64,000 nucleotides of DNA from a virus (taxonomy: Duplodnaviria > Caudoviricetes), in the IMG/VR virus record IMGVR_UViG_3300021426_000068, positions 68,808-132,807 of that record. One strand, given 5' to 3'. The translations under genes and the position numbers were made by a program. This document shows positions 4,717 through 64,000 of the stretch, piece after piece. The notes under the pieces are model-generated. The model was given only the letters and a program-made list of their open reading frames with translations. It was not told the DNA's origin and did no database searches. Each line of letters opens with the position of its first letter. The stretch's first letter is position 1.

Positions 4717-5607
4717 ATGGCAAAAAGAGGTAGAAAACCAAAAGAACGTAAAGGTTATTTTTATGAAAATGAAGAACAAGCAGTAATTGACTATATTTCA
4801 ACAGATGATGGTGTTAAGAAAAATGAAATATTCAATAAGTATCTTTATCCAGCATTTGTTAAAATGATTGAATCTATTATAAGAAGATATAATTTATATT
4901 GTTCAGATGAAGAATTTGTTCAAACATTTAATGATACATTATCATATTTAATGTCAAAAATATCACATTATAAAAAAGTAATGTATATATATGAACAAAT
5001 TGAATTCATACCTGAAAACGAAGATGCTGTCATAATTAATGAAGATAATAAAAAAGAATTTTTTAAAACAGCTAATGTTAATAGTCCTGAATATGTGGAA
5101 GTAGATTATTTTGGAAACAATATAGAATATTATAAGCTTAAAGAGAAAAAAATGAAGGCTTTTTCATATTGTCAAACAGTTGTTAAAAATTATCTTATGT
5201 TTAAAAGAATACAAGTAGTAAAAGAACAACAAAGAAATACATCATATGATACGGTTTCTGATACATTTGAAAATGATGCAAAATATTCAACAGAAATTAT
5301 TGATTCATATATTTTGGCTGAAAAATTAATATCAAAAACCTCTAATGAAATTAGAAAAATGCTTCAGAATGCTGAAGAAAACAACTTATCAGAAAAAGAA
5401 ATAAAAGTTGGTTATGCATTATGTGATTTATTTGAAGATAATAAATGGGAACAACTTATTAGAGATGATGATAGTAATAAATTATTGAAAAGTTCCGTTT
5501 TAATGTTTTTAAGAGAAGCAACACTTATGACAACAAAAGAAATAAGAGATAATTGTAAACCATTTAAAACATTATATTTTCTACTTAAAAAAAATGAACT
5601 TGAATAA
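4717..5607 (+). CDS. Late-transcription sigma factor (T4 gp55-like) with an internal insertion
   Basis: YF...EEQAVIDY, LYPAFVKMIESIIRRY, KAFSYCQTVVKNYL resemble gp55 region-2 motifs. Confidence 0.65.
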   Translation: MAKRGRKPKERKGYFYENEEQAVIDYISTDDGVKKNEIFNKYLYPAFVKMIESIIRRYNLYCSDEEFVQTFNDTLSYLMSKISHYKKVMYIYEQIEFIPENEDAVIINEDNKKEFFKTANVNSPEYVEVDYFGNNIEYYKLKEKKMKAFSYCQTVVKNYLMFKRIQVVKEQQRNTSYDTVSDTFENDAKYSTEIIDSYILAEKLISKTSNEIRKMLQNAEENNLSEKEIKVGYALCDLFEDNKWEQLIRDDDSNKLLKSSVLMFLREATLMTTKEIRDNCKPFKTLYFLLKKNELE

Positions 5608-5647
5608 TTTGTTTTAAACTATTTATAGTTATAAAGTATTAAATATT

Positions 5648-6052
5648 ATGGAAAAAAGATATAAAGTAAAATTAAATTCAAATGATAAAATTGAAGAACT
5701 TCTTCAAGAAATTTATAACGAAGCATGTAGACAACTTAACCAAATTCAAATAGAAATGGATAAGTTGACTAACAGTATAAATCTTGGTGCTGAAGAAATA
5801 ACAATCGAAGATAAGACAAAATATTCAAAGGCAATGCATGATTATTTAGGGGATAAAGACCGTGCAATTAAATCTAAATTTGAAATTGCTAAATTTTTAG
5901 GTGAAATTGTTAAACATAATGGTAGTGTAAATGATACACTTAATGACCCAGCATTTGCTAAAGCAACAAGTCTTAATATTAAAAATTTGAGAAATGCTGT
6001 TTTATCTGATGATAAAGAAGAAGATACTGACACATATATATTAAAACATTAA
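5648..6052 (+). CDS. Hypothetical protein (late operon)
   Basis: 134-aa ORF preceded by AACTATTTATA at 5617-5627. Confidence 0.7.
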   Translation: MEKRYKVKLNSNDKIEELLQEIYNEACRQLNQIQIEMDKLTNSINLGAEEITIEDKTKYSKAMHDYLGDKDRAIKSKFEIAKFLGEIVKHNGSVNDTLNDPAFAKATSLNIKNLRNAVLSDDKEEDTDTYILKH

Positions 6053-6053
6053 T

Positions 6054-8009
6054 ATGGCTGCATTAACAACAGAAGTAATAGGTACTATAGGTGCAATTCA
6101 AACACTCATAGAGAACTTTCCTATGAGTATTTTTGAACTTTTTGGAAATAAAACATATACAAACCCAATTGACTTTATAATGGATGTATTAAGACAATTG
6201 GGTATTAGTGATGCTGTTCTTGTTGATAAACTTATTGAACTTTACTTTAATGTTCCAAATGCTGTTGAATTATATGGAGATGTATCAAATTATAAGTATA
6301 AATTTATAAAAAAACCAACAGAAGAACAAATAGAACAAGCAGTAAAAGAACAAGATATTCCAAGTAAAATAGATGCTAATAGTCCAAACTATATTTTCAT
6401 TGTAAATGAAAATGAAACAAAATCTTATTATAGAAAAACAGCACCTGTTCCAACTGAACTTCAAAGTGAATTTTTAAATGGTATTGAATTTTCTGTTAAA
6501 GGGATTATACAAAACATATTAACTGGTTTATTATCTTGTTCTATTATTCCTGAAATACCAGAATCTTATATGGATAATAGTAATATACAATTTATTTTTC
6601 CAAAAGATTCTTTTGATATTAGTGGATTATTAAATATTAATCCTTTAACCGATATTGGTAAAAACTTTTATTCAGGTGTTGATGATGAAGACTTAACAGT
6701 AAACAATTTATATAAAACAAATGATTTAAATGCTTTCATTTGGTATTCTATGAATAGAGGTACAACATTAACACAACAAGAAAAAAATAAGATGATGTGG
6801 GATAGTAGAATTGTATCTGAACGTGAAGGTAATGAGGAAAATAGAAGAATATCTTCAGAAGATTGGGATAATTGGATTAATAGTAAAGTAGAAACAAATA
6901 GTATTTTTTATTTGAATAATTGGCAAAAATATCTTGATGCATTAAGTGGTTCTAACAAAACTGTTGATATTCCTTTACATCCTATATTACAATTTGAACC
7001 AACTGATTTTTTTGGATATAATAAAGGTATTAGAGTATCATTTCCAAGTCAAACATGGCATAAAGACGAAGGAATATTTAATAAAAGTATTTATAGGTTT
7101 AATATAGATTATTTAAATAACATACAAATATTTAATCCTAGACTTATCATAACTGAAATGATAAACACTTTATTAAATGGAAATATAAATCTTGGTGTTA
7201 ATTTAAATTACTCTATACAAACTAAAATATTAGAAGGAAGAATTAACACTATAATTAAAAAAGCATTAGAAGAAGATGATGCAACAGTTGAAGATTGTTT
7301 CTTTAGTTTCTCAAATGATGAATACAATGAAGCACTTAAAAATATGGAACTTCAAAAGTATAATGCAAAAGAATTAAATAGTGAAACATCTCCTGCGATA
7401 AAAATAGATGAAAACTTTGGATTAAATGCTATTAATGAAATTAATTCAATGGCAACATTAAATGAAAAGATTTCAACTATTACAAAAACTGTTTATGATA
7501 TTTCAGCAATACCAGCACAAGATGCTGCAATTGAAATTAGTGATAAACTAAGTTTATCTTATAATGAAAAGTGGATTAATGATGTTGTTATGGCTCTTGT
7601 TATGCCATTAGCAAAAGCAATACTTACTCCAAAAGTAATGTTATTATTTTTAATAAACTTTCAAATAATGGGAATGATTAATATTAATGACATTAAATCA
7701 CTTAACGATGTAATGGATTTAATATTGAAAAAAATGATAGCAATTATTATATCATTAGTAAGATATATTAAAGATAAAATAATTGAATTTTTATTAAAAT
7801 TATTCTTTGATGTTGCCGAAGAATTAATTGTCAAATGGGGTATACTAATTTTAAAAGAAAAACTTGATGCTTGGTTAACATTACTTGCTGAAGCAATAAG
7901 TTGTATTCCATTATTTAATTTTGGTAAAGTATTAACTGAAATTGATGATGTTAATTATGCTGATATAACACAAACACAGGATATACCAAAAACTGAAGAA
8001 AAATGTTAA
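6054..8009 (+). CDS. Putative virion structural protein
   Basis: 651-aa ORF in the late operon upstream of baseplate-like genes; helical hydrophobic C-terminus. Confidence 0.6.
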   Translation: MAALTTEVIGTIGAIQTLIENFPMSIFELFGNKTYTNPIDFIMDVLRQLGISDAVLVDKLIELYFNVPNAVELYGDVSNYKYKFIKKPTEEQIEQAVKEQDIPSKIDANSPNYIFIVNENETKSYYRKTAPVPTELQSEFLNGIEFSVKGIIQNILTGLLSCSIIPEIPESYMDNSNIQFIFPKDSFDISGLLNINPLTDIGKNFYSGVDDEDLTVNNLYKTNDLNAFIWYSMNRGTTLTQQEKNKMMWDSRIVSEREGNEENRRISSEDWDNWINSKVETNSIFYLNNWQKYLDALSGSNKTVDIPLHPILQFEPTDFFGYNKGIRVSFPSQTWHKDEGIFNKSIYRFNIDYLNNIQIFNPRLIITEMINTLLNGNINLGVNLNYSIQTKILEGRINTIIKKALEEDDATVEDCFFSFSNDEYNEALKNMELQKYNAKELNSETSPAIKIDENFGLNAINEINSMATLNEKISTITKTVYDISAIPAQDAAIEISDKLSLSYNEKWINDVVMALVMPLAKAILTPKVMLLFLINFQIMGMININDIKSLNDVMDLILKKMIAIIISLVRYIKDKIIEFLLKLFFDVAEELIVKWGILILKEKLDAWLTLLAEAISCIPLFNFGKVLTEIDDVNYADITQTQDIPKTEEKC

Positions 8010-8034
8010 TAAATTTTTTAAAAAGTAAACAAAT

Positions 8035-8427
8035 ATGAATTTAGATAACATAGCAAGAACAATGAAAAACGCTTTCACTAAAATGAAAACGCCTGCTGAA
8101 ATTTTACCACCATTCTTACTTTATTGTGTTGCAACAAGAAGAAGTGGTATGTCTGCTTATGAAACAACTTCTAAAATCATATCAGATAATGCTGCATTAA
8201 ATATTTTAACAGGTGAAAATCCTGATGGAACACCTAATGTTGTTAATCAGTATACTTATAATATTGTTAAACATGTCTTAGATGAAATAAAAAATAATGC
8301 TGTTGTCCAAGTTTCAATACCAGCAAATTCTATTATGGTACAAACTAATGGAAGTAATGCAGGTGGTCCAGTTGTTTCTGTCGGACAAAATATAATAAGT
8401 ACAGTTGTAAGAGGAATTATAAGATAA
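8035..8427 (+). CDS. Putative baseplate-associated protein
   Basis: C-terminal VQTNGSNAGGPVVSVG beta-rich segment; context. Confidence 0.45.
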   Translation: MNLDNIARTMKNAFTKMKTPAEILPPFLLYCVATRRSGMSAYETTSKIISDNAALNILTGENPDGTPNVVNQYTYNIVKHVLDEIKNNAVVQVSIPANSIMVQTNGSNAGGPVVSVGQNIISTVVRGIIR

Positions 8428-8612
8428 TGGAAAAGAAAAACATAAAAGAATTAAGTAATTCTGAATTAAATATCTATAAAAAAGAATTAACAAATGAATT
8501 TGAATCCATAAAAGGAAAAATAGATTTATTAATTAAGTCACTTAAAGAAACAGAAAAAGAATATTTAAAGGTTGAAACAGAATTAAAAATAAGAAGTAAT
8601 AGTATATACTAA
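8427..8612 (+). CDS. Small coiled-coil hypothetical protein
   Basis: 61-aa ORF coupled to both neighbours. Confidence 0.6.
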   Translation: MEKKNIKELSNSELNIYKKELTNEFESIKGKIDLLIKSLKETEKEYLKVETELKIRSNSIY

Positions 8613-8613
8613 T

Positions 8614-9495
8614 ATGGCAGCAAATCAATATATACCAGGTAGTAGATTGGTAAAGGTTATTAGTATTGATGATGAAAATGGTGGTAATAGAATTAAAGTT
8701 AGATTTACACCTGAAGATAATAGCCGTAGAGACAGTGAATTACCATATGCAATACCATATCTACCAAAAATGTTACATGTTATGCCTAAAGTTGGTGAAT
8801 ATGTAATTGCTTTTTCAACCAATTTAACGGATTCTGAAAGTCAAAGATTTTATATTGGGCCAATTATTTCCCAATATAGTCATATGTTAGAAGAAAAAAA
8901 TTCTCTTGAAGCGTTGTCAATGGCTAAAGGTACTAGAGTTACACCAGATGTTTCAGAAGATTTAAAGCCACTAACAGAAGGTGCTTTTCCCAAAAAAGAA
9001 GATGTTGCTTTACTTGGTAGAAAAAATACTGATATTATATTAACTGAAAATGATGTAAGAATTCGTGCAGGCGTTAGAAAAGTAGAAGAAGGAAATAGTA
9101 GAAATGTAAACTTTAATGGCGAAAATCCTGCTTATATTAAATTAAAATATTGTCCAGTTGAACAATATGCTGATAATGACAAATATAATAGTAGTATTGC
9201 AATAGTTGCTGATAAAGTTTTACTTCTTGGTAATAATCCTAAAGAAAATGATAATAAACTTACAACAGATAAACATAATTTAATTAGTGATGAACAGTTT
9301 AATAAATTAATAGAAAAAACCCATGAACTTCCATTTGGTGATACATTAGTTGAATTCTTGACAATGTTCAGAGACGCTTTTATTAATCATGTTCACCCAT
9401 TTCCAACAATGAAACCATGTTATACAAATTCAATTGAAAATTTGCAAAAATATGATTTAACAAAAATGTTATCAAAAACTATTAGAATAGATTAA
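8614..9495 (+). CDS. Baseplate hub/spike protein, gp5/VgrG-type OB fold
   Basis: VISIDD...RIKVR...P.LPK...PKVGEYV OB-fold motif; C-terminal HVHP. Confidence 0.7.
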   Translation: MAANQYIPGSRLVKVISIDDENGGNRIKVRFTPEDNSRRDSELPYAIPYLPKMLHVMPKVGEYVIAFSTNLTDSESQRFYIGPIISQYSHMLEEKNSLEALSMAKGTRVTPDVSEDLKPLTEGAFPKKEDVALLGRKNTDIILTENDVRIRAGVRKVEEGNSRNVNFNGENPAYIKLKYCPVEQYADNDKYNSSIAIVADKVLLLGNNPKENDNKLTTDKHNLISDEQFNKLIEKTHELPFGDTLVEFLTMFRDAFINHVHPFPTMKPCYTNSIENLQKYDLTKMLSKTIRID

Positions 9496-9526
9496 AAAAA
9501 CTCGTAGGTAATTCCTACGAGTTTTT
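9496..9526. terminator. Bidirectional intrinsic terminator
   Basis: AAAAACTCGTAGG-taatt-CCTACGAGTTTTT between convergent genes. Confidence 0.8.
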
Positions 9527-10255
9527 ATTTTCATCATTAGTTAAATTGTTCTTATGTAAAATTAAAGTTCCATCTGGTAAATGTTCAAAATTTTTTAACG
9601 GTATACAGTTTGATGTCTGATAACTATAATCCGATTCACCAAAATAAATGTATATTAATTTCAAATAATCTCTATTATATGTTTTACAGAATTTTAAAAG
9701 GTTTTTAATATCATCTTCGTCTGAATCAAAAACATCAATCCTTTTTATATATTTAACCAAGTCTTTAATATTGTATATTGAATCATCATATGATTCTAAA
9801 GATTCTTCTGCTTGGTTGTAATATTCTATATCATGCCATTGATTATTCCATTCTGAGTCATTTCTTAATTTCATATGTGCATCTTTTGCTGAAGCACCTT
9901 GAAATTGGTTTTTTAATCTTTCTGGTGAATAATATTCAAATGGATATATATTACTAATATTATGCAATGAGTTTAATTTTTTCATATCAAATTCAATTCT
10001 AACACCACATCTTGAAGGATAAGCAAATCCTTCATAAAAAGACTTGTGCCTTGTTAAAGACATGAAATTATTCCCATTTCTCATATGTTTTTGTTTGTCA
10101 TTTAAGGCAAACATATTAAACCTTATAATTGCTAAAAGTGAAGAGAAATGCGTGAAATGATATAATGTATCATAATTAGTACCTTCCATAATTTGAGTAA
10201 TTACGGAATTTACCATTTCTTTTATATCATTTTCTGTTATAATAATTTTACTCAT
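9515..10255 (-). CDS. Tagged ADP-ribosyltransferase-like fold protein
   Basis: Start MSKIIITENDIKEMVNSVI (tag); LYHFT...MSLTR...QAEE pattern; paralogous to a domain of the 1356-aa protein. Confidence 0.5.
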   Translation of the reverse strand: MSKIIITENDIKEMVNSVITQIMEGTNYDTLYHFTHFSSLLAIIRFNMFALNDKQKHMRNGNNFMSLTRHKSFYEGFAYPSRCGVRIEFDMKKLNSLHNISNIYPFEYYSPERLKNQFQGASAKDAHMKLRNDSEWNNQWHDIEYYNQAEESLESYDDSIYNIKDLVKYIKRIDVFDSDEDDIKNLLKFCKTYNRDYLKLIYIYFGESDYSYQTSNCIPLKNFEHLPDGTLILHKNNLTNDENKNS

Positions 10256-11756
10256 ATCTTTCTGTAACGTCACTTACAACTCTGAACCTTAAAATATCTT
10301 TATAATATTTCATTTCCCTACCTGATTTAACTCTTATATCAATATGATATTCATTAGGTATTAAATCTTCAGTATATATAACAAAAAAGTTCTTAAGAAA
10401 ACCTTTTTCTACTGGTTGATAATCAAATACTGTTAATTCTCTATTTCCATCCTTAACATATATACGATATTCGGCACTGTCAATGAGCTTAATTTTAAAT
10501 GTTTCAAATTCCTTTCTGAAATCAACAGTAACCTCTCTGATTTCACCTCTGTTTAAATCTTCAGCATCATTTATACCGTATATACTAGGAACTAAATTTT
10601 CTTTTGTACTTACAACGTTTCCAATAGAAATAAATCTGTTCATTGGTTGTACCTCAAATTCCATTTCTACATCTTCTATTTTTTCACCATTTAAAGCCAA
10701 ATTAAGCCAATTATCGTAAAGTATAGTTCCATTATCCACATCTTCAGGTAAAGTCGAAATTTCGGCAAAATAGACACCTTTTTGAGCCTGTTTAACAGGA
10801 TATTCAATATCATTTATCATACATGTAGGAATTTCGTCAAGATTTTGTGGAATTCCGTTTATATTTGCATAAAGATATAATCTATTTTCTTTACCTTTTG
10901 TAAATGTTGCTCTATCATCTTTAATTGTTTCGCAATATGTGCATTCTATATATGGATGAAAAAATGTATTAGTTGTATCAGTAAAGAAACCAACATATTG
11001 TGTAATGTCAGGCTGCATTTTTTCAAAACGAGGGGTAAACATTAACATGATACCAAAATTATGTTCACCATTTATGATGTCAAGTACATAATTTGTTATG
11101 TCTAAGTCCAAATTTTCATTTCCAAAATCAAAATGTTGCGTATCTAAAATATATGAACTTACTCCACTATTGAATAACTCAATTTGTTCGGAAATGAATT
11201 CATCAGAATATACACCACCTTCAAGAAATATTTTAACCTTTGTATCACCACTAAATTGCCAAATATTTCTATTAATGAAGTTAATATCAGGACTTTCTAT
11301 ATTAATTTTTTCTTCATCAACTGGCCATACTTTTCCATTTTCTGAAAAAAACCAAGAAGAACCTTCATCTGAAAATGAACGGTTATTGTTAATCCAAAAA
11401 TCTGCAACGTAGTCAAATCCTCTTCCCTGGTCAAATACGCAAGGAAGTTTAAGTGCAATAACATCAAATGATGCTGCTCTCTGTTTTGGTTTTATACCGT
11501 TTTCTAATAACTTTTCATAAGGATATCCATCAACTGAAAAACAGTTTGTCATTTTTAACTTAAATGTTAATTTATCTAAATCAGCAAACGTTTTATCTTC
11601 TACAAGTTTTAAAATTTCTGATTCATCAAAATGAATAAGTCCACGACTTGTAACTTCACCATAATTAAGTTCCAAAACAGGATTTAAACCAACATTGGCA
11701 AATGGATTATTCTTATATATTGTGTTTGTCTTGTCTAAGAATAAATGTCTTATCAT
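10248..11756 (-). CDS. Putative virion structural protein
   Basis: 502-aa beta-rich ORF, FFTDTTNTFFHPYIE motif, late motif at 11777-11787. Confidence 0.6.
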   Translation of the reverse strand: MIRHLFLDKTNTIYKNNPFANVGLNPVLELNYGEVTSRGLIHFDESEILKLVEDKTFADLDKLTFKLKMTNCFSVDGYPYEKLLENGIKPKQRAASFDVIALKLPCVFDQGRGFDYVADFWINNNRSFSDEGSSWFFSENGKVWPVDEEKINIESPDINFINRNIWQFSGDTKVKIFLEGGVYSDEFISEQIELFNSGVSSYILDTQHFDFGNENLDLDITNYVLDIINGEHNFGIMLMFTPRFEKMQPDITQYVGFFTDTTNTFFHPYIECTYCETIKDDRATFTKGKENRLYLYANINGIPQNLDEIPTCMINDIEYPVKQAQKGVYFAEISTLPEDVDNGTILYDNWLNLALNGEKIEDVEMEFEVQPMNRFISIGNVVSTKENLVPSIYGINDAEDLNRGEIREVTVDFRKEFETFKIKLIDSAEYRIYVKDGNRELTVFDYQPVEKGFLKNFFVIYTEDLIPNEYHIDIRVKSGREMKYYKDILRFRVVSDVTERYE

Positions 11757-25247: not shown

Positions 25248-27155
25248 TTATCTAAGTTCATTAATATCCCAAGTCTGTAATCCATCAACGTTCACGGTGC
25301 CGTAAAATCTGTTATTAACACATTTCTTAGCATATCTTGTGAGGATACCCTTAACAGGAGCAAAGTTCATAGGATTGTAGATAGTTGGTGTTAATTGCAT
25401 AGGAATATATGGTGCGTAGATATAACCAGTATCAAGTAATGATTTACCTTTATGACCGATAATTATTGACCAGTGAGGTGAATAAGGGTCACGATATACT
25501 TGATAACGACCACCAAGTGAACCTACTCTTTCAATACCCATATTGTATTGGTCTGATTCAGCACTTGCATCTGATACATGGAAGTATTCAAGATTGTCAA
25601 ATACTGCTGAGATTTCAGAAGAAACTACGATAAAGTTTGCACCACCACGAAGAGTTGATTTATGGATTTGTGCAGAAATCTGGTTAACTTTAGTTACAAG
25701 TTCCTGATTCCAGTCTTTCTGAGTGTAGTTAGTTGAGAAACCTGCTTGTCTTCTCCAACCGTTAACATCCCAACGTGCATGCCAAGGAGCAAATTTACGA
25801 AGGTCTCTAAGGATTTCACGGTCAATTTCTGCTGCGATTTGTTCAGAAAGAAGTGCAGTAAGTTCTGCTTCAGCATCAATATTATGGAATGCAGATACGT
25901 CTTGTGCAAGTTCAGGAGACCAAGTTGCACGAAGTTTTCTTTCTTCAACTGATACAGTTACACTATCAAGTTTGAATGATACTTCACCAATTTCGGTTTC
26001 AAGTTCAAGGCTGTCATACTGACACCATGCTACTTTGAAGGCTTCCAAATCAAGTGCTTCTGGGTCAACACCAAGATATCCGTCCATTGACATACCCTGT
26101 GCTTTTGCAGGTTTTGTTAAGTCAAGGTCGATATAAATGCAACCTTCTGCATCACATGCACCAGCATATTCAACGATACCTTTACCATATTTTTGTGTAA
26201 CAAGACGGAAAGGAATTGATTCATTTGCTACGAAGCAAGTACTTGCAGAGTTACCAATAGTTGTATCAGCAACTACTTTAAGAGAAGCAAGGAATGCTTC
26301 AGTATCCATTTCATTACCATCAGGACCAGTAAGTTTACCAGCATTGTATGATGAGAAACCTTTTACCTTAAGGATAAGGTTACGGATTGTACCGTCTGAA
26401 TATTCAGGAATATCATCAATTGTTGCGTCTACAAGTTGACCACGTTTGAAAACAACAGGAGTTGCATCACCAACTTTGATGTGGATTTTACCTTTTGAAT
26501 TATCAAAAAGGAAGTCATTGTAGAAGAGGTCATAAAGTGTTTTACCCATGTAACGAGTTACTTCTGGACTAACCTGACGTACTCTTTCGCCTTCACGTTT
26601 TGCTGCATAAGCTTCATCGTAAGAAGTGAAACCACTACCTACAACTTCACCTGATTTAATGTCATAAATTTCGAAAGTTTGTTCATTAACAGTTTCATCT
26701 GGAAGATAGAATCTGTTATAAGTGCTACCGTCTCTACGGTCTACTCTTTCATAACCCATAAGGCCTTTGTGACGACCAGTTGCACCGTCTTCGATTTCTT
26801 CTGATGACCACTCTCTTTCGGAAGTGACAGGAAGAAGGAAGAAGAGTTTACCAATTGGAAGGTTCATAGCCTGTACAGATACGATATCATTAGCAAGGAG
26901 TTTACTGAAAACTCTACGAATGATAGGGAATACAACAGTTTCGAAAGAACCACTGTTATTAGAATCAGTTGCTTCATTAAGCATTGATTTTGCTTGGTTT
27001 TCGAAAAGAGTTGCAACATTTTCCTTAACAACACCAACAAGACCATCAGTCATACCGAGTGAAGACCATCTGTCGTTAATTTCTTTTCTAATTCTTCTCT
27101 GTTCATTAAGTTCAATTGTACCTACTTGACCAGATTTTAAAAAGTCTGTAACCAT
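25248..27155 (-). CDS. Major capsid protein (T4 gp23-like)
   Basis: PIIRRVF..LLANDIVSVQAMNLP, RKLRATWSPELAQD...H.IDAEAEL, EIDREI, GYIYAPYIP; probable propeptide cut at MLNE/AT. Confidence 0.97.
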   Translation of the reverse strand: MVTDFLKSGQVGTIELNEQRRIRKEINDRWSSLGMTDGLVGVVKENVATLFENQAKSMLNEATDSNNSGSFETVVFPIIRRVFSKLLANDIVSVQAMNLPIGKLFFLLPVTSEREWSSEEIEDGATGRHKGLMGYERVDRRDGSTYNRFYLPDETVNEQTFEIYDIKSGEVVGSGFTSYDEAYAAKREGERVRQVSPEVTRYMGKTLYDLFYNDFLFDNSKGKIHIKVGDATPVVFKRGQLVDATIDDIPEYSDGTIRNLILKVKGFSSYNAGKLTGPDGNEMDTEAFLASLKVVADTTIGNSASTCFVANESIPFRLVTQKYGKGIVEYAGACDAEGCIYIDLDLTKPAKAQGMSMDGYLGVDPEALDLEAFKVAWCQYDSLELETEIGEVSFKLDSVTVSVEERKLRATWSPELAQDVSAFHNIDAEAELTALLSEQIAAEIDREILRDLRKFAPWHARWDVNGWRRQAGFSTNYTQKDWNQELVTKVNQISAQIHKSTLRGGANFIVVSSEISAVFDNLEYFHVSDASAESDQYNMGIERVGSLGGRYQVYRDPYSPHWSIIIGHKGKSLLDTGYIYAPYIPMQLTPTIYNPMNFAPVKGILTRYAKKCVNNRFYGTVNVDGLQTWDINELR

Positions 27156-27207
27156 TTTTAAATATTTTAATTTTTATTTATTCTTTTATTTTGTTTTTTA
27201 ATTTTAA

Positions 27208-28848
27208 TTACATACCCATTCTTTTAATGAGGTCTAATGTTTCCATAAGTCCCTTAGATTTTTTAACTTCATTAAGTGCTTTATTTGGTTCTGCTGTCAT
27301 AGCAGATGCACTTTCAAGTGTAAGGTTCTTATTAGCATTTTTCTTAAGTTCTTTGTTAATAGATTCATAAAGTGCATTTGACTGTTCAATAGTTTTTGCT
27401 TCATTTGAGAATCTGTTAACAATTTCAACTCTTTCTTTTTGACTTACTGCATTTTCAGTAAAGAGTTTTGTAATTTTTGCAAGGTTTGTATTTACTATAT
27501 AAGATTCCCGAATGTTTTTACCAAGTTCTTTCGCACATTCTTTAAGTTGATTATTTTCTTTCTTATAAGCTTCATTAATCTTCTTAAGTCTTACAATTTC
27601 TTTCTTGTAATTTTCAACAATCTCATCGTAATTACCACCAGCTGAAACGTGACGTTTTACTTTTGGACCATGTTCTTTTCTGTTATCAGGGATATGAGAC
27701 TTGGAATTACTTCTCTGTTGTACTGCACCACCTATGTTAGTGCCTTCATCAACAACAGGTTCATTTACTGAACAAGTACCATCACCGCATTCATCAACGT
27801 CTTCATTGACTGTTTTTTCAAAAGGTTCACCTTTATCTTTTGAACTACCAGCCCAAGGTTTTTCAGTTCCTGTTGGCACACCTTTTTCCCAAGATTTGCC
27901 TGATTTTGAAGGTTCTGAATTGGTAAGTCCCTTAATAGGGTCTTTAGTTTGATAATTATCTGTATAACCAAGGTCCACTTCAAATACTAATTGTTTGTTT
28001 TCTTTCATAGTTTTTCTACTTTTTTTATTTTCAAATCTTGGTTCGTTTAAGCCTTCATCGTAATCGTCAAAACCTGCTGGTTCTGAATCTTCAAAATCTT
28101 CAAGGTCTTTTTTAGAAGGTTTGAACTTAGGTGCTTTTCTGATATATTCATCTTCAAATGAAGTGTCAATATCTAAATCGTCATCATCATCATCAAATAT
28201 TCCTTCTTTGATTACGCCTTCAGCCATTTCCTCACTACTACCTTCCATTGCTGAATCATCTGTAGAATCTTCACTGTTAAGGTCGATAACATATTCGGCT
28301 CCAGTATTACCATCTTTTAATTGTACAGTATTACCATCTTGTTTAACAACAACCTGGTCAGAATCCTGCATTAATTTGTAAACTTTAACAATTTGGTTGT
28401 AATCTTCCTCGCCTGTGAGGTCATATGTATTTTCATCACCTGTTTGATATTGTGAATAATTAGACCAATCATCTGTGCTATCACCTTCACCCTCAATTGG
28501 TGCTTCCTGAGCGTTAACATCCTGAGCCTGTTCATCACCTGTCTGTGACATGTCATCTACTGGTTGTTCCTGTGACATTTCGTCATCGTTTACATCCTCT
28601 GATACGTCACCAGATTTTTCTGAATCAGTGTCTTTATCATTCTCTTTATCATCAGTGCTCTTTTCAACTACTTCATAATCGTCTTTTTCTTCTTCATCAT
28701 CATTCTCAATTGATTCACGAAGAACGTCTTTTACAACATCACCAAGCAATGTTTTCAAAGTATTTTTACTTTCTTCTTTTAATGCATTCTTAATTGAATT
28801 CATTTCAAGAATTGCTTCAGATGCAATATTTTTATCTTTTTTGCTCAT
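27208..28848 (-). CDS. Prohead scaffold/core protein
   Basis: Highly acidic with C-terminal coiled coil; immediately upstream of MCP; many (I/L/V)xE sites. Confidence 0.7.
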   Translation of the reverse strand: MSKKDKNIASEAILEMNSIKNALKEESKNTLKTLLGDVVKDVLRESIENDDEEEKDDYEVVEKSTDDKENDKDTDSEKSGDVSEDVNDDEMSQEQPVDDMSQTGDEQAQDVNAQEAPIEGEGDSTDDWSNYSQYQTGDENTYDLTGEEDYNQIVKVYKLMQDSDQVVVKQDGNTVQLKDGNTGAEYVIDLNSEDSTDDSAMEGSSEEMAEGVIKEGIFDDDDDDLDIDTSFEDEYIRKAPKFKPSKKDLEDFEDSEPAGFDDYDEGLNEPRFENKKSRKTMKENKQLVFEVDLGYTDNYQTKDPIKGLTNSEPSKSGKSWEKGVPTGTEKPWAGSSKDKGEPFEKTVNEDVDECGDGTCSVNEPVVDEGTNIGGAVQQRSNSKSHIPDNRKEHGPKVKRHVSAGGNYDEIVENYKKEIVRLKKINEAYKKENNQLKECAKELGKNIRESYIVNTNLAKITKLFTENAVSQKERVEIVNRFSNEAKTIEQSNALYESINKELKKNANKNLTLESASAMTAEPNKALNEVKKSKGLMETLDLIKRMGM

Positions 28849-56086: not shown

Positions 56087-57898
56087 ATGGAAATTAATAA
56101 AATCTATAATTGTGATTGTATTGAAGGTTTAAAACAATTAGATGATAACAGTGTTGATTTAACAGTTACAAGTCCACCATATGATGATTTAAGAAGTTAT
56201 GGTGATACTCTTGAATGGAATTTTGATGTTTTTAAACAAATTGCTAAAGAACTTTATCGTGTAACAAAACCAGGTGGTGTTGTTGTTTGGATTGTTGGTG
56301 ATGCCACAATAAAAGGTGGTGAAACAGGCACATCATTTAAACAGGCACTATATTTTAAAGACGAATGTGGTTTTATATTACATGATACAATGATTTATGA
56401 GAAAAATGGTTCATCACGCCCAGCAAGAAGAACTTCAAAAAGATATTCACAAATATTTGAATATATGTTTGTGTTTACTAAAGGTGAAATAAGAAAAGAT
56501 ATCACTCTTATTGCTGATAAACGTAATAAATGGGCTGGTTGGGCTAAATGGGGAAAAAATTCTTCATTTAATGTAAAAGGTGATTTAATTGAAGTTAAAA
56601 AACAACAGCCTGTTATTTCAGAATTTAGTCTTAGAAATAATATTTGGAAATATAGTGTAAGTTTTAATGATAAAACAGGTCATCCTGCTGTATTTCCAGA
56701 AAAACTTGCTGAAGATAATATTCTTTCATGGTCAGTTGAAGGTGATTTAGTACTTGACCCATTTATGGGAAGTGGTACTACGGCTAAAATGGCAATGTTA
56801 AATAAACGTAACTTTATTGGTTTTGAGAAGAACACTGAATACTATGAAAAATCACTTGAACGAATTGGTAAATATGAAGGAAAAACAAATGAAAGTTTAA
56901 GTGCTGTTACTACCACAAATGAATATGGAGAAGAAGAAACATTACAATATAGTACTTCAGAAGATAAAGAATTAGAAGGTAAAACTGAATTGTTTAATCA
57001 ATATCTTGAACAACTTAATCAATATTTTAACGAACAAACTCTTGGAACATTAAAAACTCTTAAATTTAATTTTGTTACTAAAACCAATGAAGAAAGAGTT
57101 AAGAAAATTATTGGTATTGATGAAACAAATCCTGTAGAAGTAAGAAAAGAAATAGAAAGATTGGAAACAATCTTAAATTCTTTTGAACTAGAAAATTTTC
57201 AGCCTTCAGCACAACATGAAGATAATATTACTAAAACAGATGATAAAGAAGTATATTTATCAAATTTATCAAAAGAAGAGTCTAAAGAACTTATTCCAAT
57301 CAAATTTGATTTTAGAACACAAGAATTCAAAGATTTTCTTTTTGAATTTTTATTGAAATATTATCAACTTAAACGTCTTCCTGATAGTGTAATTGAAGTA
57401 AATGAACGTGCAAGAGAAGAACAATCAAAAAAAGACTCTGAAACTTCTGAAAATAAATTTGATACAGACTTTTTTGATAAACCGAAAAAACGGAAAAGAA
57501 GAACTAAATCTGAAATTGTAAAAATAGAATTACCAAACTCAAACGGAATCGTTTATAACGAAGAATCTATTAAAAACGCAGTTGAAAACTTTGATAATTC
57601 TGAAAAAATAGGAAATTTAGAACATCCTGTTGAAAATAAAGATTTTATAATTAATAATGTTACTACTGATAAAAATGATAATGTTACAAATTATGCAACA
57701 AAAGAAGTAAATTCTGACACAAAATTTAATGTGGAAAAAAACGAAGACGAACTTCCATTTGAACTTACTGAAGAAGAAAGACAAAACATTTTAGGCATTG
57801 AATTTGCTGGAATAGAAAATGGTAAAGCAAAATATGTTGCTCCTGAAGTTAAAGTAAAACGTCCACGTGGAAGACCAAGAAAAATAAAATTATTCTAA
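56087..57898 (+). CDS. Beta-class amino-DNA methyltransferase (N4-C/N6-A) with long C-terminal extension and AT-hook
   Basis: TSPPY, HPAVFP, VLDPFMGSGTT; C-terminal KRPRGRPRK. Confidence 0.88.
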   Translation: MEINKIYNCDCIEGLKQLDDNSVDLTVTSPPYDDLRSYGDTLEWNFDVFKQIAKELYRVTKPGGVVVWIVGDATIKGGETGTSFKQALYFKDECGFILHDTMIYEKNGSSRPARRTSKRYSQIFEYMFVFTKGEIRKDITLIADKRNKWAGWAKWGKNSSFNVKGDLIEVKKQQPVISEFSLRNNIWKYSVSFNDKTGHPAVFPEKLAEDNILSWSVEGDLVLDPFMGSGTTAKMAMLNKRNFIGFEKNTEYYEKSLERIGKYEGKTNESLSAVTTTNEYGEEETLQYSTSEDKELEGKTELFNQYLEQLNQYFNEQTLGTLKTLKFNFVTKTNEERVKKIIGIDETNPVEVRKEIERLETILNSFELENFQPSAQHEDNITKTDDKEVYLSNLSKEESKELIPIKFDFRTQEFKDFLFEFLLKYYQLKRLPDSVIEVNERAREEQSKKDSETSENKFDTDFFDKPKKRKRRTKSEIVKIELPNSNGIVYNEESIKNAVENFDNSEKIGNLEHPVENKDFIINNVTTDKNDNVTNYATKEVNSDTKFNVEKNEDELPFELTEEERQNILGIEFAGIENGKAKYVAPEVKVKRPRGRPRKIKLF

Positions 57899-59007: not shown

Positions 59008-59637
59008 ATGAAATCCAAATCTGAAAAAGTTAATGAACAAATGGAGATAGGAAACATTGGAGAAGATATTTTTTGTATTGAATTTGTTCCTACTATAAAA
59101 TCTTTTTATAATAAAAAAATAGTTGATTTAAGAGGCACATTATTAGAGAAAGATAATGATATTGATTTTTTATTAGTTCCGTTGGAATATACTGTTGATA
59201 TTAACAATTTAGAATGGCAAGAAAAGATTAAAAATGAACTTACTTATCATACAGAAGATAGTCTTAAAAATGCAGAAATTTTTGCAATAGAGATAAAAAC
59301 AGATAAAAAGTCATATAAAACAAATAGATTGGTATATGATATAACTTCTCATGATAAAAGAGGCGGTTGTGCTCGTTCATTATGTGATTTTTTGTTTTAT
59401 GTTGTTATAGATGATAACAATAATGCTTGTAATTATTATTTTTTTAACATGTTTAAACTTAGGAGATATATAAGAGAACATTGTGAAGAAATAAACAAAA
59501 CAAAAAATTTTTTTCTTTTAAATTTTAAAGATGATATAAATGAAACTGATGGTAAGTCATTATTATTATTAATTAATTTTAACATACTAGTAAAAAATAA
59601 AATCGGAAAAAAATACAATGTTTATGGAACATTTTAA
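59008..59637 (+). CDS. PD-(D/E)XK nuclease-like protein
   Basis: GNIGE, DIDF, IEIKTD; likely start 59008 after TATTTTTG at 58986. Confidence 0.55.
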   Translation: MKSKSEKVNEQMEIGNIGEDIFCIEFVPTIKSFYNKKIVDLRGTLLEKDNDIDFLLVPLEYTVDINNLEWQEKIKNELTYHTEDSLKNAEIFAIEIKTDKKSYKTNRLVYDITSHDKRGGCARSLCDFLFYVVIDDNNNACNYYFFNMFKLRRYIREHCEEINKTKNFFLLNFKDDINETDGKSLLLLINFNILVKNKIGKKYNVYGTF

Positions 59638-61762
59638 TTGTGTAATAGAAAATGTAACATATTATAATCAAGAAAATGGATACACCATCATGTCAGTTAG
59701 GCCTGATGGTGAAATAAGTTCCATAACACTTATTGCAAATACAACTAATCCATTACCAGGTGTTACTTTATATGTAGAAGGTGAATGGAAAAAACATCAA
59801 ATATATGGTAAACAATTTGTTTCAACACTTTGTAATGAAATCATGCCTGATACTGTTTATGGTATTAGAAAATATCTTGGTAGTGGTTTAATAAAAGGTG
59901 TTGGACAAGTAACTGCTGATAAAATTGTTAACAAATTTGGTGAAGAAACGCCTGATATAATTGAAAACCATCCTGAAAGACTGAAAGAAATACCAAGACT
60001 TTCACAAAAAACAATAGATTTACTTGTAGAATCTTGGAACGAGCAAAAACATATGTTTGACATTATGGTGTTTCTTAAAAGTTTTGATATCAGTACTTTA
60101 TATGCAGTAAAAATATATAAACTATATGGTAATGAAGCAATTTCTATACTTAAAGAGAATCCATATAGATTAATCACTGATATTGATGGTATAGGATTTA
60201 TTAAAGCAGATACAATTGCTTTAAGGATGGGATATGATATGACTTCTGCAAAACGTCAAGAAGCAGGTATTGTATATACACTTTCACAATATGCTGAAGA
60301 AGGAAACACATATTGTACTAAAACATTTCTTTCTCCTGAAGTTGCAAACCTTCTTTCACTTCAACCAAGTCTTATTGATGGGACAATAGATGATATGATT
60401 GAAAAAGAAGAACTTGTTAATGAAGATAATAAAATATTTTTACCGTTTTATTATAAAGCGGAAAAATCAATTGCTGAAAAACTTTATGAGTTAATTATAA
60501 GTTATAAGGAAAAAGAGGTTATTAATGATTTACAAATTAATGATATAGAAAATGTTCTTGGAATTGAATATAATGAAGAACAAAGAGAAGCAATTAAAAC
60601 TGCCTTATATAACAATGTAATGGTATTAACAGGTGGACCAGGTACAGGTAAGACAACAGTAACTAAAGGTATTATTACGGCTTTTAGATTAATGAACAAA
60701 CAAATACTTCTTGCTGCACCAACAGGAAAAGCAGCTGATAGAATGTCAGATGCAACAGGTGGTGAAGCTAAGACAATTCACAGACTTCTTGGTTATAATC
60801 CAACAAGAGGATATTTGTATAATGAAGATTTTCCTTTATGTGGTGATGTTCTTATTCTTGATGAGACTTCAATGATTAATGTACAACTTATGTATACATT
60901 ACTTAAGGCTGTTCCTATTGAAATGAAATTAGTACTTATAGGTGACGTTGACCAGCTTCCTTGTATTGGTGCAGGTAATATTTTGTCTGATTTAATTAAA
61001 TCAGGAAAAGTACCAGTCGTTAAACTTGAAAAAATATTCAGACAAGCAGCAAGTTCTAAAATAATTACAACAGCACATGCAATTAATCATGGCGAAATAC
61101 CTGTTTTAAAAAACGAAAAAGATTCTGATTTATTTTTCATGACAGATTCAGATGATGAATCAATTGCAGATACAATTTCTGATTTGGTTTTAAATAGACT
61201 TCCTCATAAATATAACATTAAACCAACTGAAATACAGGTGCTGACACCAATGAAAAAGGGTGTTCTTGGTACAAAGAATCTTAATGATACATTACAAGAA
61301 GTTATTAACAAAAACGGTGGAAATGAAATTAAGTATGGTGATACTATATTCAGAGAAAATGATAAAGTGATGCAAATTAAAAATAACTATGAAAAAGGTG
61401 TTTTTAATGGTGATTCAGGTTTTATTCAAAAAATTAATAAGGAATTGAAAATTGTGACAGTAATATTTAGGAAACAAGTTGTTGACTACGATTTTGGTGA
61501 ACTTGATGAACTTATGTTAGCATATGCTGTTACAGTACATAAATCACAAGGTTCTGAATATCCCATTGTTGTTATGCCACTTACTAAAGCACATTATATG
61601 ATGATGAAACGAAACTTAATATATACAGGCATTACAAGAGCGAAATCATTATGTGTATTGATTGGACAGAAACAAACACTTTATATGGGTATTAACAATA
61701 TTGATACAACAAAAAGAAATACATATTTAAAAGAATTTTTAAACAATGAAAATTGGAATTAA
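59618..61762 (+). CDS. recD2: RecD2-like SF1B helicase
   Basis: HhH IKGVG/IDGIGF, TGGPGTGKT, LAAPTGKAA, DETSM, GDVDQLP, YAVTVHKSQGSE, YTGITRAK. Confidence 0.93.
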   Translation: MFMEHFNCVIENVTYYNQENGYTIMSVRPDGEISSITLIANTTNPLPGVTLYVEGEWKKHQIYGKQFVSTLCNEIMPDTVYGIRKYLGSGLIKGVGQVTADKIVNKFGEETPDIIENHPERLKEIPRLSQKTIDLLVESWNEQKHMFDIMVFLKSFDISTLYAVKIYKLYGNEAISILKENPYRLITDIDGIGFIKADTIALRMGYDMTSAKRQEAGIVYTLSQYAEEGNTYCTKTFLSPEVANLLSLQPSLIDGTIDDMIEKEELVNEDNKIFLPFYYKAEKSIAEKLYELIISYKEKEVINDLQINDIENVLGIEYNEEQREAIKTALYNNVMVLTGGPGTGKTTVTKGIITAFRLMNKQILLAAPTGKAADRMSDATGGEAKTIHRLLGYNPTRGYLYNEDFPLCGDVLILDETSMINVQLMYTLLKAVPIEMKLVLIGDVDQLPCIGAGNILSDLIKSGKVPVVKLEKIFRQAASSKIITTAHAINHGEIPVLKNEKDSDLFFMTDSDDESIADTISDLVLNRLPHKYNIKPTEIQVLTPMKKGVLGTKNLNDTLQEVINKNGGNEIKYGDTIFRENDKVMQIKNNYEKGVFNGDSGFIQKINKELKIVTVIFRKQVVDYDFGELDELMLAYAVTVHKSQGSEYPIVVMPLTKAHYMMMKRNLIYTGITRAKSLCVLIGQKQTLYMGINNIDTTKRNTYLKEFLNNENWN

Positions 61763-61817: not shown

Positions 61818-62504
61818 ATGTATAAAAGTTTTGAAAAAGAAAATTATCCAAATATTTTGGATTCAATTAACGTAAGTTATCAAGATATAATTTATAAATT
61901 GAAAAGAAATCCTTATACTCAACCTCCTAGATATGATAAATTTAATCATACAACAGAAGAAGAAGATATTGAGGAAAGGATAACTGTACCATATTTTAGT
62001 GAATCTTTTTTAAAATACATTGAAGAAAAAAATACAATACCTTCTCTTTACGAATTCGAAATGCAATATAGAGAAGATAATAAGCCTTTCTACGAACAAT
62101 ATAATACAAAAGAATATCGTTATGCAATAAGAAATAGATTGCAGAGAGCATATCCTTCTTTAATTAGAGATATCATGTTTGCTTTATTTCTTAAAGAAAA
62201 ATTTAAAGATAAAAATATAGAAGTTATATATAATGCTAAACTTGATAAGTATGAAGGTATTGACATTTTGATTTGTGGTAAACATAATTGGGGTATTCAT
62301 CTGTTTACTAAAACAAGGCGTGGAGTTGAGTTTAGAGCAAGAAAAGATAACAGACATGCTGATGATTTTTATAATGTTATTGATATTGATTTAGAAATAA
62401 ATCTTGATTCTAAAAATAAATTTGGTAACGTTATTTTGTACGGAGAAAAAGATTACCAAAACCTTATTGAAAAAGTTAAAAAAGAAAATGAACTAATAAT
62501 GTAG
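61818..62504 (+). CDS. TaqI-family-like type II restriction endonuclease
   Basis: RAYPSLIRD, YNAKLDKYEGIDILI motifs recalled from TaqI-like enzymes. Confidence 0.55.
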   Translation: MYKSFEKENYPNILDSINVSYQDIIYKLKRNPYTQPPRYDKFNHTTEEEDIEERITVPYFSESFLKYIEEKNTIPSLYEFEMQYREDNKPFYEQYNTKEYRYAIRNRLQRAYPSLIRDIMFALFLKEKFKDKNIEVIYNAKLDKYEGIDILICGKHNWGIHLFTKTRRGVEFRARKDNRHADDFYNVIDIDLEINLDSKNKFGNVILYGEKDYQNLIEKVKKENELIM

Positions 62505-62507
62505 CAT

Positions 62508-62681
62508 ATGGAAAACGTAATTACTTTAATTGAACAAGAAATTAAAAAACAAGAAGATTTAAAAAATAAAGCATGGTCATGTAATGATTATTCTTCTTAT
62601 AATGAAATATGTGCTTTTATTTCAGGTCTTACTAAAGCAAAACAAATTATTTTAGAACATGGAAAAACAGAAAATACTTGA
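62508..62681 (+). CDS. Small hypothetical protein (57 aa)
   Basis: Manual translation MENVITLIEQEIKKQEDLKNKAWSCNDYSSYNEICAFISGLTKAKQIILEHGKTENT. Confidence 0.5.
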   Translation: MENVITLIEQEIKKQEDLKNKAWSCNDYSSYNEICAFISGLTKAKQIILEHGKTENT

Positions 62682-62785
62682 ATGAACTAATATAGGTAAC
62701 GATATATGTGTTTACACTAAATAGAAAAATTTACCCATTGGTGTGTGGGTTAATGCTCGGAAAATCAATTTGATAGAACGAGAAA

Positions 62786-63002
62786 GTTGTAATTCCATTT
62801 AATTTATGGTTAACTAACACCTGGTGTACTGTACGTGAATGGTACGGCTATGTTGTAATTCCATTTAATTTATGGTTGACTAACACCTGGCAATCTTAAG
62901 GCTCTTACAGATAACAGATTGTAATTCCATTTAATTTATGTTGACTAACACTTAGAGATTGTTGCACGTGTTTTATGACACAGTTGTAATTTCATTTACT
63001 TT
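62786..63002 (-). CRISPR. CRISPR mini-array: 3 near-complete repeats plus 1 partial, 35-36 bp repeat and 30-31 bp spacers
   Basis: Repeat (+) GTTGTAATTCCATTTAATTTATGGTT(A/G)ACTAACAC(C) at 62786, 62852, 62918 (1-bp deletion), 62983 (first 20 bp, 18/20 match); unique spacers; internal CCAT/ATGG hairpin; strand inferred from promoter and terminator. Confidence 0.88.
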
Positions 63003-63050
63003 TTTACATTAATAAACTATTATAAATAGAAAAAATAATTTTTTATAAGA

Positions 63051-64000
63051 ATGATAAGAGCATATAAATATAAACTTAAACCAACTGTGAAACAACAAAA
63101 ATTGTTCTCACAAGCCTTTGGTAATGCTCGCTTTATCTATAATTGGGGACTTAATCGTAAAAAAGAAACCTGGGAAAATGAACATAAAAATGTTACATAT
63201 CTACAACTGGCTAAAGAATTAACTTTACTTAAAAAAGACGGTGAACATGATTGGTTAAAGAATAGTTCATCTGTCTCATTACAACAATCACTTAGAAACC
63301 TTGATAATGCCAATACCAGATTCTTTAAATCTAAAAAAGGCTTCCCTAAATTTAAATCAAAGAAAAATAGTGTTGACTCAGTAAAGTTCATAAACGGTGT
63401 TCACTTTGATTTTGAAACTATGAGAGTATCTGTGCCATGTATAGGTAAAGTTAAATTTCTTAAAAATCGTGAATTTGATGTAAACAATCCTACAGTAAAA
63501 TTGGGTACTTTAACTGTTACAAAAGATAAATGTGGCGATTATTGGTGTACCATAGTAGTTGATGACAATAAACCAAACGTATCGAAAACCAAGATATGTG
63601 AGGAAAAAACTGTTGGTATTGACTTGGGTATTAAAGATTATGCAATTCTATCTGACGGTACAAAGTACGGAAATCCTAAGTATCTTGAAGCAAAACAGCA
63701 ACAATTAACAAAAGCACAACAATGGCTTTCAAGAACACAAAAAAATAGTAAACGTCATGAAAAAGCAAAATTATATGTAGCAAAGTTACATAGGAAAATT
63801 GCTAACAGAAGAAATGATTTTCTTCATAAGTTAACAACCATGTTAATTAATAGTGAATATGATACATTTTGTATGGAGAATCTTAACATTACTGGTATGA
63901 CACAGAATCATAACCTTGCAAAGAGTATAAATAGTGTTGCATGGAATGAATTTGTTAGACAATTAACTTATAAATGTGAATGGTGTGGAAAGAACATTGT
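63051..64000 (+). CDS. tnpB: TnpB RNA-guided nuclease (IS200/IS605 family), truncated by window end; no tnpA upstream
   Basis: Manual translation MIRAYKYKLKPTVKQQ...FGNARFIYNWGL...GFPKFKSKK...VGIDLGIKD (RuvC-I)...FLHKLT...CMENLNITGM (RuvC-II). Confidence 0.93.
   Translation, partial: MIRAYKYKLKPTVKQQKLFSQAFGNARFIYNWGLNRKKETWENEHKNVTYLQLAKELTLLKKDGEHDWLKNSSSVSLQQSLRNLDNANTRFFKSKKGFPKFKSKKNSVDSVKFINGVHFDFETMRVSVPCIGKVKFLKNREFDVNNPTVKLGTLTVTKDKCGDYWCTIVVDDNKPNVSKTKICEEKTVGIDLGIKDYAILSDGTKYGNPKYLEAKQQQLTKAQQWLSRTQKNSKRHEKAKLYVAKLHRKIANRRNDFLHKLTTMLINSEYDTFCMENLNITGMTQNHNLAKSINSVAWNEFVRQLTYKCEWCGKNI

Follow-up and report, generated by a model that had tools for sequence, protein, structure and literature searches.

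How a short CRISPR array came to lie directly in front of a tnpB gene in the genome of a giant rumen phage, and whether its spacers serve as guides for the TnpB that it adjoins, are the questions raised by a locus at the very end of a viral sequence record. The stretch of DNA analyzed here (the window, 64,000 nucleotides) comprises the last 64 kb of a 132,807-bp IMG/VR virus record (IMGVR_UViG_3300021426_000068; G000) that is rated 37% complete; record and window end together inside tnpB, and a complete 363-kb phage relative (G002) was used for comparison. The reading favored here, with a probability of about 0.72, is that the locus belongs to a TnpB element in which a second, upstream copy of the omega-RNA, the guide RNA of TnpB, has grown into a three-guide array serving TnpB. 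A preliminary description of the locus had already proposed a guide array linked to TnpB, and this proposal has held up: the array moves with tnpB in one bounded element and its repeat, judging by homology, comes from the omega-RNA of the same TnpB.

The Array and the TnpB Protein

The array was initially described as four repeats at a 66-bp period ending about 50 bp from the tnpB start codon. It is a real array, but with three full repeats (36–37 nt) and a fourth reduced to its first ~20 nt; the spacings from start to start are 66, 66, and 65, the three spacers measure 29–30 nt, and 48 nt separate the half repeat from the ATG (Table 1). The repeat was found nowhere else in the record or in the complete genome of G002, each of which has one cassette.

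The open reading frame that follows (63051–63998) matches the families HTH_OrfB_IS605 and OrfB_IS605 and the NCBIfam model guided_TnpB (259 bits), and the RuvC-I (GIDLG) and RuvC-II (MENL) motifs noted previously, which are all that the window holds of the nuclease domain, are present. The missing part is supplied by L064, a 4,373-bp metagenome contig of a ~98–99% identical strain that agrees with the window in its flanks and in all three spacers. It encodes a complete TnpB of 388 aa, and ~95 nt beyond the stop codon it reaches the element's right end. This protein aligns with ISDra2 TnpB over its full length (E 2.7e-76) and has the three RuvC acidic residues (D/E/D) and the zinc finger in place, so that the impression of a canonical TnpB gained from the truncated gene extends to the whole: by its residues and alignment, TnpB is ISDra2-like and catalytically intact. 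The sequence past position 64000, as represented by L064, also contains the omega-RNA at the right end of the element, which is likewise seen in relatives with a covarying consensus. The earlier statement that the window has no tnpA, cas1, cas2, or effector gene stands for the families searched, in that neither the entire record nor the complete 363-kb relative yielded Y1 TnpA, Cas1, or Cas9; other cas families were not searched.

Table 1. Features of the array, its scaffold, and the adjoining tnpB gene (window coordinates).
Feature	Position	Strand	Remarks
Left terminal inverted repeat	62695..62717		Degenerate in window copy; reverse complement of right-end terminus in relatives
5' domain of second omega-RNA-like scaffold	62731..62785	+	Part of full-length match to model R1
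Hairpin A	62733-62750	+	Loop GGUGU at 62740-62744
Helix 2	62756-62759 with 62779-62782	+	Compensatory changes
Repeat 1, scaffold terminal module (helix 3, hairpin B, tail)	62786..62822	+	Model R1 positions ~50-86
Hairpin B	62795-62809	+	Within repeat 1
Tail ACACC	62817-62821	+	Pairs with hairpin A loop (predicted)
Spacer 1 (guide 1)	62823..62851	+	Same place as flank-derived guide in right-end omega-RNA
Repeat 2	62852..62888	+	
Spacer 2	62889..62917	+	
Repeat 3	62918..62953	+	One-base deletion; tail ACACU
Spacer 3	62954..62982	+	
Terminal half repeat	62983..63002	+	First ~20 nt; no guide behind
Region upstream of tnpB, putative promoter region	63003..63050	+	Near-palindrome 63017-63029; conserved in relatives with and without array
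tnpB, first 316 codons	63051..64000	+	Interrupted by contig end

Homology Between the Upstream Cassette and the Omega-RNA

The segment of ~90 nt to the left of the array is conserved between relatives whose spacers all differ. Neither the hairpin nor the 31-nt segment (62755–62785) contained in it is thus a spacer or a simple terminator, and two initial proposals are lost with this observation. The 31-nt segment is not a fourth guide but conserved scaffold, by homology derived from omega-RNA, which leaves three guides; the hairpin belongs to the same scaffold, and the T tract that was thought to complete a terminator is not conserved, an A run standing in its place in L042.

The source of this scaffold is indicated by a covariance model (R1, 86 positions) that was built from seven right-end omega-RNA segments only (A3). 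In every element with a complete cassette the model matches the upstream cassette over its full length (1–86 of 86) and on the plus strand, with 37.4 bits (E 3e-5) at window 62731–62822 and with 46.5, 42.6, and 38.8 bits in L066, L042, and L088, respectively; the match in L044 is interrupted by the contig end. When upstream cassette and right end were aligned globally, the score exceeded that of shuffled sequences on the same strand (z 2.3–3.1) and fell below random on the opposite strand. By homology, window 62731–62822 duplicates, on the plus strand, the final ~86 nt of the omega-RNA belonging to the same TnpB. Since every match to the model stops at the last base of repeat 1, where spacer 1 begins in the window, spacer 1 occupies the place that the flank-derived guide has in the omega-RNA.

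The same correspondence extends to secondary structure. The right-end consensus comprises four helices. In a set of 17 distinct sequences from right ends and upstream cassettes, every one of the 17 pairs of these helices is paired in 100% of cells, with both sides changed in 11 of the 17 pairs, as against at most 43% of cells paired in controls in which the partners were slid by 1–3 columns. The repeat coincides with helix 3, hairpin B, and the 7-nt tail of the omega-RNA, and as judged from this structural comparison it is the terminal module of the omega-RNA, with a guide 3' of each copy on the tnpB strand. Guide RNAs of TnpB and compact Cas12 are known to form a pseudoknot that joins the scaffold to the repeat's 3' end, as in the ISDra2 structures. 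A loop-to-tail pseudoknot of this kind can be drawn here as GGGAA/UUCCC in the right-end RNAs and as GGUGU/ACACC in the upstream cassettes; its five pairs are paired in 100% of sequences, three of them being compensatory between the two classes, with single G-U variants. The omega-RNA-like fold is also the minimum-free-energy structure of the scaffold. No Rfam family was matched.

The strand of the RNA follows from two features. The closing pair of hairpin A is U-G in 15 of the 17 sequences and helix 3 contains G-U pairs, all of which fit the plus strand only; together with the colinearity with the right-end omega-RNA, these place the RNA on the plus strand, and a late transcript of the minus strand, as originally envisaged, is not what they support. 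Two other resemblances were considered and set aside. The start of the repeat on the minus strand matches the right ends of L012 and L037 at 12 of 13 positions, which lies on the strand opposite to the true homology and was therefore treated as coincidence, and a match of the repeat to the last tnpB codons in L004 is not conserved in relatives.

Array and tnpB in One Mobile Element

The preliminary description allowed that the array and tnpB might adjoin by chance. Relatives were sampled in three IMG/VR contigs, eight ENA/Logan contexts, further metagenome contigs, and one Bacteroidales metagenome-assembled genome (MAG), and in every close relative so sampled the cassette lies directly upstream of tnpB, in unrelated flanks. 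At least ten independent contexts carry the cassette, with zero to three repeat-flanked spacers, all different; it is present with every sampled TnpB of 68–100% identity and absent from the 58–62% relatives L012 and L037. Conservation among loci with different flanks begins at window 62695 (alignment A1), and the element ends in terminal inverted repeats of ~25 bp. Perfect 8-bp target duplications surround three copies, namely L042 (TAAAAGTA), L041 (TTATATAT), and L012 (TAAATAAT). By these comparisons the array and tnpB are the cargo of one bounded transposon, and for this reason their adjacency is not a matter of chance.

The 8-bp duplications and the inverted repeats also point to mobilization by a cut-and-paste transposase rather than by Y1 TnpA, and they counter an interpretation of the two hairpins as left-end and right-end hairpins of the IS608 type. 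No clean target duplication was seen at the window copy, and no empty site for its own insertion was found, the genes just upstream having no counterpart in G002. The backbones of G000 and G002 share 65–75% nucleotide identity and their modules ~90%, and the module is sited differently in each. In a miniature derivative (L068 199–510), left end, scaffold, and repeat 1 directly adjoin the terminal ~60 nt of tnpB together with the right-end omega-RNA, so that the nuclease gene has been lost and both RNA genes have been retained.

G002 encodes four TnpB homologues in all, the three beside the closest having 58, 36, and 26% identity. The 58% identical copy (L012; G002 26090–27220) has one in-frame TAG in tnpB and no upstream cassette, and retains the inverted repeats and the 8-bp duplication. 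Two assemblies break inside tnpB at different points, the window at 64000 and L006 at 13112, as expected of a repeated or polymorphic mobile element in the sample.

Spacers and Their Turnover

The relatives can be arranged as a series. Scaffold, repeat, and one guide are found in L042, L065/L066, and L091; one repeat-flanked spacer in L044, L041, L092, and L052; two spacers in L004 and L088; and three in the window and L006. Within an array the repeats match the repeat 1 of that lineage, and in every multi-unit relative the array closes with a half repeat of its own repeat variant. The repeat-flanked spacers have a guanine-plus-cytosine (GC) content of 38–63% against ~28% for the phage, with the exception of one 14-nt remnant in L006; spacer 1 of the window stands at 0.47 against ~0.28. 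Spacers are unrelated between relatives whose TnpBs are 95–97% identical. This pattern has the look of a genuine replacement of guides that came from foreign DNA. In two different phages, the first spacers (L004 5242–5270 and L006 12037–12066) have in common a 9-nt core, AGCCTGACA, with similar flanks and an offset of ~8 nt, and may come from the same target region.

Searches for protospacers gave nothing beyond chance in G000 and G002, and were negative or at chance level in GenBank phages, in PLSDB plasmids, in IMG/VR (five exact 20-mers from both ends of the window spacers), and in 401 Bacteroidales genomes searched twice. An 18-nt match in L077 is close to the chance expectation. A 26-nt match of 96% in a Bacteroidales genome (G360; L087 1501–1526), which spans the end of spacer 3 of L006 and the start of the next repeat, is at about chance level, allowing for the 401 genomes searched.

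A Proposed Mechanism and Its Weaknesses

The homology, structure, strand, linkage, and spacer turnover of the cassette, as far as they can be read by comparing sequences, fit the following scheme. Within its inverted repeats, the element has a canonical ISDra2-like TnpB and, on the same strand as tnpB, would have two genes for guide RNAs. One is the ordinary omega-RNA at the right end, beyond the window and seen in L064; the other would be an upstream duplicate of its final ~86 nt, and in this duplicate the terminal 36–37 nt would have been reiterated as a CRISPR-like repeat with a guide of 29–30 nt behind each copy. A plus-strand transcript would run from the scaffold through repeat 1, spacer 1, repeat 2, spacer 2, and repeat 3 to spacer 3. 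Its scaffold would be bound by TnpB in the manner of the omega-RNA, and the GGUGU loop of hairpin A would pair with the ACACC at the end of a repeat, in cis for repeat 1 and possibly in trans for repeats 2 and 3; such pairing would put the following spacer into the guide channel, whereupon TnpB would cut matching foreign DNA. As the right-end RNA uses the other pseudoknot pair (GGGAA/UUCCC), each guide channel would be insulated against the other. The loading of these RNAs into TnpB, their processing, the targets with their flanking motif, and the acquisition of spacers are the parts of the scheme that we infer.

A weak hint of cassette expression comes from contigs of two metatranscriptome libraries of different studies, which cover 62706–62881 and 62724–62897 at 100% identity and leave 62300–62700, most of spacer 2 together with repeat 3, spacer 3, and the half repeat uncovered. 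Such contigs give neither strand nor ends and cannot show absence, and carry-over of DNA is possible.

Several points weigh against this scheme. No protospacer was found in any of the searches, and so no flanking target-adjacent motif (TAM) can be read. The folding energy of the scaffold does not differ significantly from that of shuffled sequences on either strand (z -0.9), so that support for its structure comes from the comparison between sequences; there, most of the compensatory changes separate the right-end class from the upstream class and thus represent few evolutionary events, and the alignment used (A4) had been fitted to the model. Repeats 2 and 3 are tied to the scaffold solely by the predicted 5-bp pseudoknot between loop and tail, the only candidate link for the internal repeats; no long repeat:anti-repeat duplex was seen. 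Omega-RNAs commonly extend into the 3' end of tnpB, and this part is at most weakly duplicated upstream. The spacers turn over without adaptation genes that would explain it, and the three other TnpB homologues of G002 (58, 36, and 26% identity) could in principle be the users of the array.

Alternative Explanations

The duplicated end of the omega-RNA might no longer guide cutting, its apparent spacers being filler. Such a duplicate could be decaying debris of transposon rearrangement, or else an RNA with a decoy or regulatory role, titrating TnpB or governing transposition, and it would sit well with the failure of every search for targets, with two units that have short spacers of 14–16 nt, with the deletion in repeat 3, and with the single AT-rich "guide" of some relatives (GC 0.13 in L042 and 0.26 in L039). 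What makes it unlikely is the apparent maintenance of the cassette: the helices and the pseudoknot are held by compensatory change across TnpBs of 68–100% identity, the repeats in each array stay identical to the lineage's own repeat 1, the repeat-flanked spacers have a foreign-like GC content and are completely exchanged at 95–97% TnpB identity, and L068 retains both RNA genes although it has lost tnpB.

The switch of pseudoknot sequence between the two RNA classes invites a more far-reaching reading, which is considered rather improbable. In it, one unmodified TnpB of canonical size would run two channels insulated by the switched pseudoknot code, the flank-derived guide at the right end serving the transposon and the array gaining foreign spacers without Cas1 and Cas2, by way of the element itself or of its cut-and-paste transposition. 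If true, this would show the earliest step in the birth of a CRISPR system in an element that has not yet lost its mobility.

Borrowing of a host effector by a Cas-less mini-array, be it a Bacteroidales type II-C Cas9 or a type VI-B Cas13b, with TnpB as a mere vehicle, is very unlikely. The preliminary description had offered a module hijacking host Cas proteins as one of its two options, and there are likenesses to explain. The 36-nt repeat, the 30-nt spacers, and the GTTGTA start recall type II-C repeats, and the repeat is identical at 23 of 36 positions to that of a cas9-associated array adjoining the module copy in the Bacteroidales MAG. In the type II-C variant, repeat 1 read backwards together with the conserved segment would be a tracrRNA (trans-activating CRISPR RNA), and on the minus strand the two are indeed laid out like one, with anti-repeat, two hairpins, and U run. 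The minus-strand repeat may also resemble type VI-B repeats, which are 36 nt long with GUUG...CAAC ends and lie beside cas13b. Against this, no host array with the repeat was found in 185,579 species genomes (GTDB; exact 22-mer, then a degenerate 18-base pattern) or, by BLAST, in 401 Bacteroidales genomes; the repeat evidently derives from the omega-RNA of this TnpB; by its G-U pairs and by colinearity with the omega-RNA, the RNA belongs on the opposite strand; and relatives do not conserve the U run. In this Cas9 family the tracrRNA tail (L083, L084) is unlike the conserved segment of the module, and, since a related element (L084) has rep and cas9 without the module, the copy in the MAG is a plain insertion between them.

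The MAG locus in question (L063, contig C29 of G004, 5150–11750) is a plasmid-like element with a GC content of 49% over the 8-kb locus L052. Its order runs from a Rep3 initiator with 21-bp iterons through the TnpB module and a Cas9 of 1,211–1,228 aa to a degenerate four-repeat array. The Cas9 has His in the usual position of the RuvC-I Asp (LGLHLGT), and no cas1 was found in this MAG.

Least probable is a minus-strand late transcript that starts at 63021–63029, is ended by the hairpin and T tract, and yields up to four guides with a handle ending AUUACAAC: a motif enriched in the window, CTATTTATA, is present there on the minus strand and a consensus scan calls a terminator-like site at 62750–62733 on that strand, but the motif is palindromic in relatives, the supposed fourth guide and the hairpin are conserved scaffold, an A run replaces the T tract in copies of the L042 type, several conserved G-U pairs would become A-C mismatches, and the opposite-strand alignment to the omega-RNA is below random. 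Of that proposal, the motif at 63021–63029 is confirmed in its presence and not in its direction, since the spot is a perfect 14-nt palindrome in relatives and so points neither way; the order of handle and then guide also stands, with the handle ending in ...ACACCU on the tnpB strand. CTATTTATA occurs at 12 sites in the window (e.g., 548, 5619, 11777, 14448, and 63021) against 2.3 expected, a number reached in none of 100 shuffles, and is a candidate phage promoter element.

Genomic Neighborhood

Upstream of the module lie genes for an N6/N4 DNA methylase (window 56087–57898) and a RecD2-type helicase (59618–61762), the latter being the last gene before the module with a counterpart in G002. 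Coding repeats of 78 nt occur in long runs (L004 7637–8795; G000 60.3–61.5 kb); they are common to both phages and found in many places.

Relation to Known Systems

The closest known kinds of system are TranC and type V-U, and the concept is known already: type V has arisen from TnpB many times, and TranC intermediates include phage-borne ones. TranC systems, in which the guide RNA is split, are intermediates between transposon and CRISPR (Jin et al., Cell 2025; via PMC13565253, PMC13639567, and bioRxiv 10.64898/2026.03.27.714800), and one of them, CauTranC9, is phage-borne, with a protein of 414 aa, a 38-bp repeat, and five repeats. The locus shares with TranC a nuclease that belongs to the TnpB lineage, is close to TnpB in size, and adjoins a short CRISPR-like array without adaptation genes; a repeat taken from the 3' part of the transposon guide RNA; the coexistence of transposon-type and array guides; and, for some TranC systems, carriage by a phage. 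It differs in that its protein is much nearer to ISDra2 TnpB (E 2.7e-76, full length) than to LaTranC (9jfo/9jfq; E 4.8e-36, C-terminal part only), in that the cassette has its place upstream of the gene, within an element that is still bounded and has moved recently, and in that the scaffold is covalently joined to repeat 1, with a 5-bp pseudoknot and no long repeat:anti-repeat duplex.

Type V-U and Cas12f-like systems arose from TnpB, and it has been proposed that their arrays come about when segments of the omega-RNA are duplicated serially (Altae-Tran et al., 2023, PMC10691335; Makarova et al., 2025, PMC12669027). For nearly every conserved case the array is reported downstream of the gene (PMC10691335; PMC12669027), whereas here it lies upstream. 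Like these systems, the locus is an independent association of TnpB with an array that lacks cas1 and cas2, Cas1 having been searched for, and the serial duplication of omega-RNA proposed for them is what the window sequence displays. The effector of the present element differs in having undergone no domain accretion (386–388 aa) and in retaining its own right-end omega-RNA.

Elements of the IS200/IS605 group have no inverted repeats and make no target duplications; they move by single-strand "peel and paste" with Y1 TnpA acting in cis or in trans. The present element, in contrast, has inverted repeats of ~25 bp and 8-bp duplications, no Y1 TnpA was found in G000 or G002, and a second scaffold with an array has been added. 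Family, size, catalytic residues, and zinc finger are as in the ISDra2-type TnpB of the obligate mobile element-guided activity (OMEGA) systems (PDB 8exa, 8h1j), and so is the 3'-end guide RNA with a pseudoknot adjoining the guide.

A further comparison concerns viruses that carry short arrays of their own. Cas-less mini-arrays or solitary repeat units reportedly use or block the Cas proteins of the host. The locus resembles these in its short array, its (huge) phage genome, and the absence of cas genes, Cas1 and Cas9 having been searched for; it differs in that its repeat matches no host array found and is homologous to the guide RNA of the neighboring TnpB.

Significance

Two routes by which TnpB may come to have an array have been proposed, namely duplication of an omega-RNA segment and landing beside an existing array (PMC10691335). 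Because the repeat corresponds to the terminal stem-loop module of a duplicated omega-RNA, the homology decides here for duplication. Among the relatives each stage is represented, from one extra guide up to three, which makes them a natural snapshot of CRISPR-Cas12 systems arising from transposons. The unusual features are the upstream position of the array, a bounded element that has moved between phage genomes, a nuclease without extra domains, and two guide RNAs with different, internally matched pseudoknots. At ~1.9 kb, the element is a small system in which it can be asked whether a plain TnpB can use array guides, whether a 5-bp pseudoknot suffices to split a guide RNA, and how spacers enter an array without adaptation genes; for genome editing, too, a nuclease of 388 aa that naturally comes with a multi-guide cassette is of practical interest.

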